Positions 310 to 20,192 of a DNA stretch of 64,000 bases are shown here, one piece after another (positions within the stretch are counted from its first letter, which is position 1; every line of letters starts with the position of its first letter). This stretch comes from Candidatus Peregrinibacteria bacterium (GTDB lineage Bacteria > Patescibacteriota > Gracilibacteria > UBA1369). Made by a program: the position numbers and the translations under genes. Below the pieces are notes generated by a model. The model ran no database searches. It was not told the origin of the DNA and saw only the letters and a list, made by a program, of their open reading frames with translations. The stretch covers positions 576,001-640,000 of the forward strand of contig OY970195.1 of the NCBI GenBank assembly GCA_963708185.1, read 5' to 3'.

Positions 310-355
310 AAGGAAAAGGGCCGTCCTCGTAGCTTGTAAGCTTTGAAGACGGCCC
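310..355 (-). terminator. Intrinsic terminator ending GC-rich cassette 1
   Basis: GGGCCGTC (318-325)/GACGGCCC (348-355) stem with inner AGCTT/AAGCT, followed on minus strand by TTTTCCTT. Confidence 0.7.
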
Positions 356-426
356 CTGATCCTGTTCTGATTGTCTTTGGCCTCCGCATAGCGGGGCTGT
401 GCACCGTGACCGTGAGGTCTTGGCGC

Positions 427-442
427 AATCCGGTTCATGAAA
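427..442. repeat. 3' arm of long-range inverted repeat (pairs with 4787-4802)
   Basis: AATCCGGTTCATGAAA is the exact reverse complement of TTTCATGAACCGGATT at 4787-4802. Confidence 0.9.
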
Positions 443-547
443 TATCCATTCTGCCTTACTTTCCGCGAAGGCTTGCGTGCTTCGATGAGAGTCGAAACCG
501 CTCTTGCCCGAATGCAGTCGGACGCTGTGTGCGAATGTAGGGCCTAC

Positions 548-2884
548 TCAGTAGTTGAAGACGAAATAGGCCCAGTTGGACGGACAGTCCGCGCTCACCG
601 AGAACGATCCGGGGTTGGTCTTGAGAAGGACGTACCCCGTCGTGTAGATCGCTCCGTAGAGATCGGGTTCCAGCTTCGGCGCCGGTCCGGGAGAAGGAGC
701 CGAAGGAGCGCACTTGAAGTAGACGCTCAACGGCCCCGTTCCCGAAGCGAACGTGAAGTCGACGGTCTGTCCGGGAGTGAGGTTGATTGCGACCCCGACA
801 TCGTCATTCGGTGAAGTGTTGACGGTGAAGGGGGTGCTCTGGCAGGTAGTGTCGTCCGATGACGAATCTCCGAGGATGACTCCGTAGTGGAGATGAATCA
901 CCTTGGTACAGGTGCCCGCTTCGATGCAGGTACCCGTGGTAGACGAGCAGGGACCGCCGGCATCGCTGCCGCCGCTTCCTCCCGAACCCGAGCTACCACT
1001 GGAACCGCCGGAACCGCTGGAGCCGGAGCTCCCGCTCGTTCCACCGGAACTGGTACTTCCGGCTGCACCACTGCTTCCGGCAGTGCCTCCGCTTCCGCCG
1101 CTTCCGGCATCTGCAGGAACACACATGTCGGTTGCAATGTCGCAGACCGTACCTGCTCCGCAGGCGCCTCCACAAGGAAGGCCGCCATCAGAGCCGCCCG
1201 CACCACCACTACCGGATGCGCCCCCACTGCCGCCGCTGCCGGCGTCAGATGGGACACACATGTCGGTCATGGTGTCGCAGACGGTGCCAGCTCCGCACTT
1301 TCCGTCACACGGCAAGACGAGGTCGCACAACCCCGTCATCGTGTTACAGACCGTACCGAGACCGCAGTGACCGCCGCAAGGATCTCCCCCGCCGCTGCCA
1401 CTGGACCCCGAACTGCCGCTGGAACCGCTGGAGCCGGAGCTCCCGCTAGATCCAGCACTGCCACTCGTGCCGCCGCTGCCTCCGGATCCGGAGGTGCAGA
1501 CACCCAGGGTGACGTTGCACGTCGTCCCTGGGCCGCATGCGCAGCTGCACGGATCCATGGCCGGGGTGCACGAACCGGCATCGCTGCCGCCCGCGCCTCC
1601 CGTTCCGGATGAACCAGATGAACCGGAAGAGCCGCCGCTGCCGGAGCTTCCCCCGGTGCCGCCGCTGCCTCCAGATCCGCCGGAGATATCGCACAGCCCC
1701 GTCATGGTGTTGCACACCGTGCCGGGGCCGCACTTATTCCCACAGGGATCGGTTCCTCCGCCGGAACCGCCGCTTCCGCCGCCACCCATATCCCGGTAGC
1801 AGTCGTTGTCGACGATTCCGTCGCAGTCGTTGTCGATGTGATCCCCGCACTCCTCCGGGCCCGTAGGCACGCAGATGCAGAGCGGAAGACCGTCATCAAC
1901 CTTGTTGTTGCAGTCGTTGTCGCGACCGTCGCAGACTTCGGGCATGGGCGAGCCCGGGATTGCGTCGCAACGGGTTGCCCAGGGCCCGTCGCAGATCACC
2001 TTGCCGAAGGCAAGGCAATCCCCAACGCCGAGAGTGCAGGGAAGGTTCGTCCCCCAGCCCTCGTCGATGAGGCTGTTGCCGTTGTTGTCGATACCGTCAC
2101 ATTTCTCGGCAACACAGAGCTTCGTGACGGGGTTGCAGACGGTGGTGCTTCCACAGACGCCGCCGCAGGGATCGCTCCCCGAGTCGCCGCCGCTTCCGCT
2201 GTCACCGCCAGTTCCGGAGTCGCCCCCGGTGCCGGCGTCGGACCCGCCCGTTCCTCCATCGCTGGATTCACAGGTGCAGGTCGACGTGTTGCAGTGGGTT
2301 CCCTGGCCGCAGTGGTTGTTGCAGTTGTTGCAACTCCCGCCGTCGGTGTTGGGAACACACTGTCCGTTGAGGCAGGTCGTGCCGGAGCCACAGTGGCCCC
2401 CGCAGTCCCCGCCGCCGTCTCCGCCCGGTACGCATTGCTTTGTATCCGGGTCGCAGACGGTAAGGGGTGGAGCGCAATGCCCTTTGCAGGGATCGCCTCC
2501 GCCGCCGGTCTCGCACTTGCCAGTATCCACGTTGCACGTGGTCCCGGAGGCGCAATGACCGCCGCACGGATCTCCACCACCCGCGACGCACTTGTCGGTC
2601 GCGACGTCGCAGGTGGTTCCGGGAGCGCATTTGCCGTTACAGGGATTGCTCCCCGGCGGCAAACACTTTCCGGTGTTTTGATCGCAGACGGTTCCGGGGC
2701 CACACGTGCCCTCGCAAACGTCCACGCCGCCCTCTCCGGTTCCGGAGCTTCCTCCGGTTCCGGGAGGGCATTGCCCGTTGAGGCAGAAGGGATGGTCTCC
2801 CTCGCTGCTGCATCCCACCGCGATAGCGATGGGGGCGAACAGTGAGAGTACCACCCACTTCCACCGCCTACGCGGTGAATACAT
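548..2884 (-). CDS. Cys/Gly/Ser-rich repeat lipoprotein with MopE-like (CDGxDNxC) motifs, myxobacterial style
   Basis: Signal peptide + AVGC lipobox; many DPCGGxCGxGTxC-like repeats, GGSGG linkers, three ExCDGxDNDCxGxxDxG-like motifs; start set at ATG 2884 because GGAG lies 6 nt upstream. Confidence 0.8.
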   Translation of the reverse strand: MYSPRRRWKWVVLSLFAPIAIAVGCSSEGDHPFCLNGQCPPGTGGSSGTGEGGVDVCEGTCGPGTVCDQNTGKCLPPGSNPCNGKCAPGTTCDVATDKCVAGGGDPCGGHCASGTTCNVDTGKCETGGGGDPCKGHCAPPLTVCDPDTKQCVPGGDGGGDCGGHCGSGTTCLNGQCVPNTDGGSCNNCNNHCGQGTHCNTSTCTCESSDGGTGGSDAGTGGDSGTGGDSGSGGDSGSDPCGGVCGSTTVCNPVTKLCVAEKCDGIDNNGNSLIDEGWGTNLPCTLGVGDCLAFGKVICDGPWATRCDAIPGSPMPEVCDGRDNDCNNKVDDGLPLCICVPTGPEECGDHIDNDCDGIVDNDCYRDMGGGGSGGSGGGTDPCGNKCGPGTVCNTMTGLCDISGGSGGSGGTGGSSGSGGSSGSSGSSGTGGAGGSDAGSCTPAMDPCSCACGPGTTCNVTLGVCTSGSGGSGGTSGSAGSSGSSGSSGSSGSSGSSGSGGGDPCGGHCGLGTVCNTMTGLCDLVLPCDGKCGAGTVCDTMTDMCVPSDAGSGGSGGASGSGGAGGSDGGLPCGGACGAGTVCDIATDMCVPADAGSGGSGGTAGSSGAAGSTSSGGTSGSSGSSGSGGSSGSSGSGGSGGSDAGGPCSSTTGTCIEAGTCTKVIHLHYGVILGDSSSDDTTCQSTPFTVNTSPNDDVGVAINLTPGQTVDFTFASGTGPLSVYFKCAPSAPSPGPAPKLEPDLYGAIYTTGYVLLKTNPGSFSVSADCPSNWAYFVFNY

Positions 2885-3136
2885 CGTTTTCTCCATGTGC
2901 CGGTCGTCACCGGCGTCGAAATTCCTCCGCAGGTGCGATCGTCATCGCAGCGGATTCACACTTTGCGCCGACCGTATTGTCTGGCGCGATGTTCTTGTTG
3001 GTAAACGATCGCGCCATAGTCGGCGACGTTGGTTGAGGTTGAGGTTTTGCATTCCCCGCGGGTGACGGATGTCGAATCCGTAAACCCGCGGGGTGCGCGA
3101 GGTGCCGTCTCAATTCCTTGCGGAAGAGCCGGCGGA

Positions 3137-19298: not shown

Positions 19299-19313
19299 TC
19301 TCTGTTTTTCACC
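19299..19313. repeat. 5' arm of long-range stem (pairs with 20110-20124)
   Basis: TCTCTGTTTTTCACC vs GGTGAAGAACAGAGA: 14 WC pairs + 1 G-U on plus-strand RNA. Confidence 0.85.
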
Positions 19314-19393
19314 AACACTTTTCGGAGCGGCTCTGCCGTTTCCATGAAGTTTGCAAATTTTGCGGTACCTAAGGGGCCGCGGAGGATACAGTC

Positions 19394-20101
19394 ATGAAAA
19401 ATCTGATGTCGATGGTTGTGACGGTTTTCGCTGCTCTTTTCGTTATCGGGGCGCTTGGAATCGGTTCGTTGGGGTGTGACAATCCCAAGGACCAGGACCG
19501 GACGTCCCAGGACGACAAGATCACCCCGGCCCAGCAACAGGCTGTGGACCGGTACATGCAACAGGAAGGCCGTCCAGGGTTCAGGTCTTCCGATCCCAGC
19601 TGGAGCGATCGCGCAAGCTATCGCTACCATCAAGCTGCCGATGCGGTGCATTCGGGTGCGGTCACCTTCGGACGATTCGTCGCGATGGTGGTGTTCCACG
19701 TTCTGATGCTCCTTATTCCCCTGCTGGTCATCAGCTTGATCCCCGGCTTTGCGGCCGGAAAGTTCGAGATGTCGATCGAAGGGGCGATCCTGGTGGCTGC
19801 GGGCGTTGTTCTGCTCATGGCCAACTGGATCGGTGTCCTCAACCTGCAGTTCTGGGTCTGGGCATGCCTCATCGTTCCTGGTGGAGCACTCTTTGTCGTC
19901 TCCTTCTTCGCGAAAGAAGGGGCGTGGAAGATTCTGCTCGTCATGGGGCCACCGGTGCTCATGGTGCTCTTGGGATTGCTCCGCATCGTCGACGCCTACA
20001 TGTCGGCACTCGTTACCGGCAGTCTCTTGGCTATCGTGGGCGGGGTTGTCGCAGTCTACTACATCGCCGAAGGCGATGAGAAGGAGCACGCACACGGTTA
20101 A
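19394..20101 (+). CDS. GC-rich lipoprotein-signal multi-pass membrane protein
   Basis: GGAGGA 7 nt before ATG; SLGC lipobox; about 5 TM helices. Confidence 0.8.
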   Translation: MKNLMSMVVTVFAALFVIGALGIGSLGCDNPKDQDRTSQDDKITPAQQQAVDRYMQQEGRPGFRSSDPSWSDRASYRYHQAADAVHSGAVTFGRFVAMVVFHVLMLLIPLLVISLIPGFAAGKFEMSIEGAILVAAGVVLLMANWIGVLNLQFWVWACLIVPGGALFVVSFFAKEGAWKILLVMGPPVLMVLLGLLRIVDAYMSALVTGSLLAIVGGVVAVYYIAEGDEKEHAHG

Positions 20102-20109
20102 CACGGTTA

Positions 20110-20124
20110 GGTGAAGAACAGAGA
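20110..20124. repeat. 3' arm of long-range stem (pairs with 19299-19313)
   Basis: See partner; begins 9 nt after stop codon. Confidence 0.85.
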
Positions 20125-20192
20125 AAGGGGTGCCATCACGGTTATTCGTTCGGTCCGCAAGGATCCGTCCGAAAACCAGGCACCCCTTTTTC
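20121..20192 (+). terminator. Long hairpin terminator of cassette 2
   Basis: AAAGGGGTGCC/GGCACCCCTTT stem, apical tccGCAAgga, T-run. Confidence 0.75.

Follow-up and report, generated by a model that had tools for sequence, protein, structure and literature searches.

The helix that joins leader and trailer in ribosomal RNA (rrn) operons is an RNase III processing stalk, and a boxA motif beside it is regarded as a signature of rRNA operons. A comparable frame encloses protein genes in the DNA analysed here, a stretch of 64,000 nucleotides (hereafter the window; genome positions 576001-640000) of G000, a single-contig genome of 1,437,033 bp (49.8% GC, 99% complete) whose source lineage is the Peribacteria, symbiotic-type tiny bacteria of the candidate phyla radiation (CPR). 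Two cassettes in this window, cassette 1 on the minus strand and cassette 2 on the plus strand, share one order of parts, namely promoter, boxA-like motif, leader strand, protein gene or genes led by a Shine-Dalgarno (SD) sequence, complementary trailer strand and terminator hairpin. We hold with moderate confidence that these cassettes are native, vertically inherited expression units that work in the manner of an rrn operon and give end-paired, probably RNase III-trimmed mRNAs. An initial annotation of the window had proposed this layout, its analogy to rrn operons and the unusual nature of the cargo, all of which stand; it had also proposed foreign-style mRNAs, untranslated transcripts and possibly circular RNA, perhaps delivered to a host, and for none of these, foreign being taken as recent transfer, did the analysis yield support.

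Among published systems, the leader-trailer helix is reported to be essential to 16S maturation (PMC10250234), and rrnTAC is described as bridging the 5' and 3' strands, speeding elongation and boosting RNase III processing (bioRxiv 10.64898/2026.03.17.712431). The cassettes share with the rrn leader a promoter, a boxA and a leader strand that pairs with the trailer, with boxA inside or beside the helix as in the organism's own 16S operon, and the genes for NusB and RNase III are present in the genome; they differ in that they enclose one or two SD-led protein genes and not rRNA, in that their helices measure 10-38 bp against approximately 45 bp, and in that Rho was not found in the genome. 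In the nut site of phage lambda, boxA is followed by the boxB hairpin, and a cassette-2-type leader likewise consists of a boxA-like motif, a short spacer and a conserved hairpin, except that this hairpin spans 60-130 nt and the trailer also pairs with its 3' strand. For icaR of Staphylococcus aureus, the 3' untranslated region (UTR) reportedly pairs with the SD region and blocks translation. The cassettes resemble icaR in UTR-UTR pairing within one mRNA, which for icaR is linked to RNase III (PMC3868564), but their arm lies beside a boxA-like motif, distant from the SD, and their layout recurs as a family across genera. The suhB-type mRNAs regulated by Nus factors and boxA, for which Nus complexes are described as looping boxA to polymerase and acting on mRNAs, similarly combine a boxA-like element in the 5' UTR of a protein gene with a proposed boxA-polymerase loop; however, the accessible text reports for them no trailer partner, and describes translational repression and Rho termination (PMC5725501), whereas the cassettes have a conserved 3' partner and Rho was not found in G000. 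Finally, the same lineage and the same kind of cargo are represented by Candidatus Peribacter, for which large, strain-variable, Cys-rich extracellular proteins thought to mediate attachment are reported; GC-rich composition, SDs, boxA-like leaders and leader-trailer helices are not described in the accessible text (PMC4736985). Literature searches on this layout in Peribacteria or CPR turned up no description.

The nearest template is found in the genome itself. The single 16S gene has a promoter followed by TGTTCTTTAACA, which we take to be boxA from its position and the known consensus, and this motif lies within a leader-trailer helix of approximately 45 bp (-61.3 kcal/mol); the 23S leader bears the same motif (genome 377805). 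The organism's own rRNA layout thus places boxA next to or within the 5' strand of a helix that forms over a long distance, and comparison with the rrn leader, which the initial annotation had suggested, reveals the cassette layout in the 16S leader and trailer as well. It should be noted that the 16S gene (L007 1249-3121) is separate from the 23S gene and is followed by a small Cys-rich open reading frame (ORF; 3305-3570), and not by a tRNA or 23S gene. RNase III and NusB are encoded side by side (genome 667052-667969, minus strand), with NusB at 667595-667969 (E 2.9e-33 in a family search of the genome).

In cassette 1, the promoter TTGACA-18-TATAAT (4986-5015; window coordinates unless marked as genome) matches the consensus at 12/12 positions and is kept in four congeneric leaders. 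The leader is approximately 700 nt long and contains the boxA-like motif GATCTTTGAAAA (4801-4812), kept as (G)ATCTTTGAAAA or GGTCTTTGAAAA in 4/4 genomes, which is a weaker match to the rrn boxA than the motif of cassette 2. The leader-trailer helix of this cassette is bipartite. Helix I is formed by a leader strand that takes in part of the boxA-like motif (4805-4829) and pairs with trailer positions 380-360, CCAAAGACAATCAGAACAGGA (360-380), a trailer strand recognised by its pairing and by compensatory changes across congeners; the predicted pairing amounts to -22 to -28 kcal/mol in all 4 genomes. Helix II begins immediately behind GATCTTTGAAAA, with a two-base overlap, and joins the 5' arm AATCCGGTTCATGAAA (4787-4802) to its perfect 16-nt complement, the 3' arm at 427-442, which is identified by complementarity, a random-trailer test (p=0.004) and congener comparison. 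Trailer hairpins of 46-62 nt sit between helices I and II, and a terminator hairpin (357-316) with a U-rich tail closes the cassette (304-357; -34.7 kcal/mol, z -6.45).

Cassette 2 shows the same order with unlike dimensions. Its TG-extended promoter (19162-19190, 11/12 consensus matches) precedes the boxA-like TGCTCTTTGACA (19218-19229), identical to the rrn boxA at 10/12 positions, and a leader hairpin with the base CAGAGAG/CUCUCUG (19238-19307; -38 kcal/mol, z -4.78). The 5' arm of the leader-trailer helix (19299-19313) overlaps the 3' half of this hairpin, and the 3' arm (20110-20124) is complementary to it at 93% of 15 nt, with one wobble (p=0.002). A terminator hairpin with U-tract follows at 20121-20197 (-42.1 kcal/mol, z -5.24). 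A simple terminator scanner overlooked both long terminator hairpins, which folding revealed. The shared order of parts described in the initial annotation is thus borne out in promoters, boxA-like motifs, stems and terminators alike. The stem probabilities derive from a test of leader against own trailer that covered 8 cassettes of G000, each against 1000 random genomic trailers.

The initial annotation had also called for a scan of the genome and its relatives, and the layout recurs in both. A third cassette lies just upstream of the window (genome 573500-575180, minus strand), with a promoter, GTTCTTTGAAAA fused to the arm AAAACTCGCAGAAG, a gene for a 342-aa Cys-rich lipoprotein (65% GC), a complementary arm and a terminator (stem p=0.016). 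Further loci at genome 434959-435507, 455301-457094 (two tandem copies), 902228-902605 and 256418-256834 likewise have a strong promoter and a boxA-like leader ahead of a GC-rich, SD-led gene; stem p-values at the first four, in that order, are 0.004, 0.093, 0.12 and 0.047. The pattern TCTTTRAMA occurs within 450 nt of 6/55 strict promoters, against approximately 0.9 expected by our own arithmetic, and these six include those of the 16S gene, the 23S gene, cassette 1 and the neighbouring cassette. A clamp as a general property of genes was rejected, as 2533 gene or operon flank pairs behaved like the random-pair control (99th percentile 36 in both), and the genome contains 13 perfect inverted repeats of 12 nt or more whose arms are both intergenic, as compared with 5 and 10 in reversed and complemented controls. 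In the absence of a general flank-pairing signal across the genome, the signal is therefore confined to the cassettes. Two other loci met in the genome deserve mention. At L043 (genome 964891-965294, minus strand) a normal-GC surface-protein gene, SLH-like by eye and without SD, has a promoter and a long leader with ATCTTTGAAAA 189 nt downstream of the promoter; and genome 721430-728839 contains very long inverted repeats, perfect over 78 nt and 221 nt and approximately 1.6 and 5.2 kb apart, which may mark a duplicated or mobile segment.

Beyond the genus, a BLAST search with the cassette 1 leader matched 0/36 genomes, whereas a covariance model succeeded. This model, R1, was built from five cassette-2-type leaders and comprises the boxA-like motif, a spacer and the hairpin base CAGAGAG/CUCUCUG. 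With E-values that are rough, R1 matches 18/41 related genomes in 14/37 genera, including 15/24 other members of the family and 2 genomes from other families, and the boxA-like word across genera approximates YGYTCTTTGAMAA. In an alignment of 26 matches, which was fitted to R1 and hence leans towards pairing, 87.8% of cells pair, compared with 71.2% in shuffled alignments (0/500 reach the observed value) and 41-49% with slid partners; two-sided changes occur at 27/31 hairpin pairs, which again 0/500 shuffles reach. Most ORFs downstream of R1 matches, picked automatically and with a few doubtful picks, are GC-richer than their locus, SD-led, and encode proteins that carry a lipobox, are secreted or are of low complexity.

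The trailers of these loci provide a further test. Wherever the ORF is complete (13/13 loci), a stretch of 10-21 nt no more than 190 nt past the stop codon is complementary to the 3' half of the hairpin and its extension (p<=0.036 at each of the 13 loci and p<0.001 at 7). An SD-led ORF stands in sense orientation at 13/13 loci other than cassette 1. The variable extension of the hairpin differs between genera and the trailer changes along with it, so that in 11/14 loci none of the other trailers among the 14 pairs as well as the own one; upstream-flank controls score low. Of all the evidence that the clamp has been selected for, this tracking of the extension by the trailer, with the preference for the own trailer, is the strongest.

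Within the genus, the comparison of cassette 1 rests on four genomes (G000, G002, G003 and G004). The locus is syntenic in the three congeners of G000, in the order pyruvyl transferase, leader, beta-barrel gene, Cys-rich gene, small lipoprotein cassette and pfkB-like kinase, and the orientation of the cassette relative to its promoter is identical in 4/4 genomes; in G001 the start of the leader is present at a contig end. Long invariant blocks and, in the fold, conserved hairpins mark the leader, whereas the barrel proteins are only 32-37% identical across congeners, compared with 61-78% for the flanking native proteins. The 16-nt arms changed in step, with C-G to U-A and G-C to A-U replacements in G002 and G003 and a U.G wobble in G004. 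Over helices I and II, 38 pairs are formed in at least 3/4 congeners according to per-genome duplex fits, which lean towards pairing, and of these 27 are invariant, 3 show one-sided and 8 two-sided changes. These compensatory changes indicate that the clamps are under selection. The arms of the neighbouring small cassette are nearly unchanged in 4/4 genomes and hence show conservation without covariation. In this small lipoprotein gene, the G003 copy (L012 6600-8400) has an apparent in-frame stop and the G004 copy (L013 3200-5100) contains two N bases.

The remaining leader of cassette 1 is also structured. A hairpin, P1, lies 5' of the boxA-like motif (4850-4951; inverted repeat 4851-4870/4931-4950, 90% complementary) and is also predicted in the four-genome consensus fold, and a second hairpin, P3 (4612-4703), consists of a 21-nt inverted repeat, 86% complementary, with a C-G to U-A change in 2/4 genomes. 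These are followed by a 27-codon upstream ORF with its own SD AGGAAAGGA (4460-4543; SD duplex -11.9 kcal/mol) and by a conserved 3' part of the leader (4290-4459) with invariant blocks and nested helices in the four-genome fold and no Rfam match at E<=1. The peptide core RLxPxxMQPRK of the upstream ORF is kept in G000, G003 and G004, and the whole stretch is deleted in G002. A scan of the window against Rfam 15 at gathering thresholds yielded 2 tRNAs and nothing else, a search at E<=1 gave zero matches over 250-5100, and 19000-20400 gave a single 16-nt chance match; these searches placed the cassettes in no known Rfam 15 family.

Cassette 1 carries two genes, delimited, like all genes here, by crude ORF calls made for this analysis. 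The first encodes a 379-aa secreted protein (3137-4276) with an N-terminal beta-sandwich and, it appears, a C-terminal OmpX/OmpA-like barrel, and the second a Cys/Gly-rich lipoprotein of 778-782 aa (548-2896; overall GC 0.65) with the lipobox AVGCSS and a weak match to the MopE motif (25 bits, under the 27-bit cut-off). Cassette 2 encodes a 235-aa membrane lipoprotein-like protein (19394-20101) without Pfam match, preceded by the SD GGAGGA (-9.5 kcal/mol) and showing 46-50% identity to its counterparts in G002 and G004. The GC-rich cargo claimed at the outset is evident for cassette 1, as positions 501-4200 form the longest run of at least 60% GC in the whole genome, but cassette 2 is only moderately GC-rich (coding sequence 0.59).

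That the cargo is unlike native genes in composition, codon use and SD, as the initial annotation held, is clear from several measures. At native starts (358 ORFs with unambiguous ATG start) the median anti-SD duplex is -0.7 kcal/mol, compared with -3.5 kcal/mol at internal control sites, and positional enrichment is absent; native genes are without SDs although the 16S tail retains CCUCC. Cargo starts, however, form duplexes of -6.4 to -12.2 kcal/mol with the 16S tail, equal to the top 0.3-4.5% of the native starts. Of the NNR codons, a share of 0.74 ends in G in the cargo and 0.92 in the barrel gene, compared with 0.43 in native genes and 0.46 in L11, L1 and trigger factor together; AAG makes up 86% of the Lys codons in the cargo against 33% natively, and GAG 67% of the Glu codons against 27%. 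This shift is wholesale and lies off the ribosomal-protein axis. Furthermore, the GC content at third codon positions (GC3) of the barrel gene is 0.86-0.91 in four species (0.86 in G000), compared with 0.45-0.65 in neighbouring native genes, and because it stays high despite a protein identity of 32-37%, we infer that this composition is maintained and is not the fading trace of a transfer. GC3 as such failed as a discriminator, since the native genes highest in it encode membrane proteins and ABC transporters, and whole-gene GC and SD strength distinguished the cargo better. Between two GC-rich cassettes there is also a Cys-rich lipoprotein paralogue of normal GC (0.55) and without SD (2-286, minus strand, continuing upstream; L001 5333-6286), which is present in G000 and G002 and was not seen at that place in G003 and G004.

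The 379-aa barrel protein has no Pfam match. A profile search found a family of 7 members among 5.8 billion proteins, and a scan of genome contigs returned the 3 congeners and nothing else, while a scan of metagenome contigs found zero; two matches from a scan with the leader DNA pattern were both discarded as unrelated chance matches. The AlphaFold2 model, of moderate confidence (pLDDT 65 overall, 70-89 in the C-terminal part), resolves into a signal helix, a beta-sandwich and, at the C-terminus, a barrel, and Foldseek matches in the PDB are OmpX, Ail, NspA, OmpA and OmpW (E 3e-6 to 3e-4, TM(target) 0.58-0.70). The last residue is Phe. On the basis of this model, the C-terminal part looks like an OmpX/OmpA-like 8-strand outer-membrane barrel. 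The nearest ESM Atlas clusters (0.86-0.87) are mostly Myxococcota hypotheticals and outer-membrane-protein barrels, and serve as a lead only. A protein resembling an outer-membrane barrel and the lipoproteins are in keeping with the envelope genes of the initial annotation; some cargo, such as the acidic 126-aa protein encoded at genome 902228, has no export signal. Overall, the cargo consists of secreted or envelope proteins that evolve fast. Family searches of the 99% complete, one-contig genome found two copies of Lgt and did not find Omp85/BamA, the Rho RNA-binding domain, RtcB or bS21.

In the mechanism that we favour, NusB and NusE would attach to the boxA-like RNA and alter RNA polymerase in the way known from rrn operons, and the modified polymerase would transcribe GC-rich, structure-prone RNA faster and with resistance to pausing. 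The 5' strand would be held tethered to the polymerase, and the trailer would pair with this tethered strand upon emerging. The resulting leader-trailer helix would close both ends of the mRNA and would probably be trimmed by RNase III as pre-rRNA is, leaving an mRNA with paired, exonuclease-protected ends. The organism's own ribosomes would then translate the cargo mRNA through SD pairing, and the products would exit via Sec and lipoprotein processing.

Several points weigh against this proposal. Transcript ends, cleavage and translation are features that we infer. The boxA-like motifs are not identical to the rrn boxA, and because the genome search did not find Rho, a classical anti-Rho antitermination role is unlikely. 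Some stems of only 10-12 nt are short for RNase III, the 5' arm of cassette 2 coincides in part with a stable local hairpin (-38 kcal/mol), a competitor of the trailer, and L005 (genome 1105519-1106280) is GC-rich and lacks a clear boxA-like motif or clamp (p=0.19). The wobble test for RNA- versus DNA-level pairing counted 23 G.U and 18 A.C (p=0.27), and both the helix pair counts in the genus and the 26-match alignment carry the lean towards pairing mentioned above. In addition, the persistent high GC3 and SD use of the cargo are without explanation.

The same helix might also form without being cleaved and act as a protective clamp or a switch, which is a close variant of the favoured reading and which we consider rather unlikely. 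In its switch version, completion of the transcript would let the trailer displace the hairpin base in the leader, and this could either permit or repress SD-dependent translation, or could simply keep exonucleases out. The cassette-2-type trailer arm, which repeats the hairpin's 5' half and competes with it for the CUCUCUG strand, fits such a switch, as do reports that Nus looping can repress mRNA translation (PMC5725501) and that icaR translation is governed by 5'-3' UTR pairing (PMC3868564). However, the arms are distant from the SD (approximately 80 nt in cassette 2 and 500 nt in cassette 1), and the organism's own 16S stalk, the nearest template, is a processing helix by established knowledge. 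If the arms instead acted on DNA, they would serve site-specific inversion, as in phase variation of surface proteins, or bound non-autonomous mobile cassettes. Variable surface-protein genes are indeed flanked by inverted repeats (10-21 bp) that share the core CAGAGAG/CTCTCTG, concerted evolution of DNA repeats would mimic compensatory change, and the wobble test gave no preference for RNA; yet this explanation is improbable, as none of the 8 scanned ORFs around the cassettes (0/8) matched a recombinase, integrase or transposase family, in agreement with the lack of integrases and transposases noted initially, and a single orientation is kept in 4/4 congeners and at 13/13 other loci. Moreover, the two arms are always found within the transcribed stretch that promoter and terminator delimit, the 5' arm belongs to an RNA hairpin with covariation and directly adjoins the boxA-like motif as in the rrn leader, and trailer hairpins are inserted between the two parts of the cassette 1 helix.

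A bolder proposal of the initial annotation was that stable, possibly circular RNAs are left untranslated and perhaps passed to a GC-rich diderm host for translation there, and in its boldest form the host would translate the cargo RNAs and place the barrel and lipoproteins in its own envelope via Sec, BAM and Lol. The non-native codon use of the cargo, which lasts in four species, the use of SDs in a genome otherwise without them, an OmpX-like barrel ending in Phe where Omp85/BamA was not found, and the mostly Myxococcota neighbours among ESM Atlas clusters, at lead level, would suit such a delivery. However, a route of RNA export is neither known nor found. Cargo SDs fit the organism's own 16S tail, and signal peptides and lipoboxes suit its own Sec system and Lgt, both of which speak against untranslated RNAs; RtcB was not found in the genome, which counts against circular RNA. 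The normal-GC, SD-less paralogue in the same locus, the cargo without export signal and a barrel family of only 7 members, with no donor lineage, likewise count against host delivery, and we regard both the general and the boldest form as very improbable. A milder form, a dedicated SD-dependent ribosome state inside the symbiont, is likelier than delivery to a host and can be entertained tentatively. Recent horizontal acquisition of an island, with flanking features that match by chance, would account for the longest high-GC stretch of the genome and for its atypical codon use, but it is contradicted by synteny and equal GC-richness in 3 congeners whose proteins have diverged to 32-37% identity, by leaders kept in 4/4 congeners with covarying clamps, and by the 8 scanned ORFs without integrase or transposase match. 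As no donor family was found either, the foreign origin proposed initially, understood as a recent transfer, retains next to no probability, and native expression units of the rrn type remain the reading that we prefer.

Other features of the window should be mentioned briefly. Right behind the cassette 2 terminator, a third near-consensus promoter (11/12; 20210-20238, plus strand) drives a Peptidase_Mx-like gene of normal GC and without SD (20360-21244). A 1175-aa ORF (12507-16034, plus strand) lies in a low-GC stretch (0.35-0.38 at 13-15 kb), and its sole match is a weak, sub-threshold one to a phage P22 injectosome translocase family. The window also contains a gene with type IV secretion system pilin (TrbC/VirB2) domains (42733-43755, minus strand) and encodes NusG, L11, L1 and an SLH-domain protein.

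Finally, these cassettes extend a logic regarded as belonging to rRNA operons, since it here frames mRNAs of up to 4.3 kb in a conserved, covarying family that reaches at least 14 genera of an uncultured CPR lineage. With them one can ask, in a natural setting, whether Nus-mediated looping of RNA also brings distant ends together in RNAs other than rRNA, a matter that the accessible text of a 2026 preprint raises merely as a possibility (bioRxiv 10.64898/2026.03.17.712431). In addition, the cargo brings out candidate proteins for contact with a host, among them a barrel of outer-membrane type encoded in a genome where BamA was not found. The presence of a discrete class of SD-led, secreted and fast-evolving genes with GC3 of up to 0.9 among genes without SDs, in a genome where neither Rho nor bS21 was found, suggests that gene expression in this minimal cell has two tiers.

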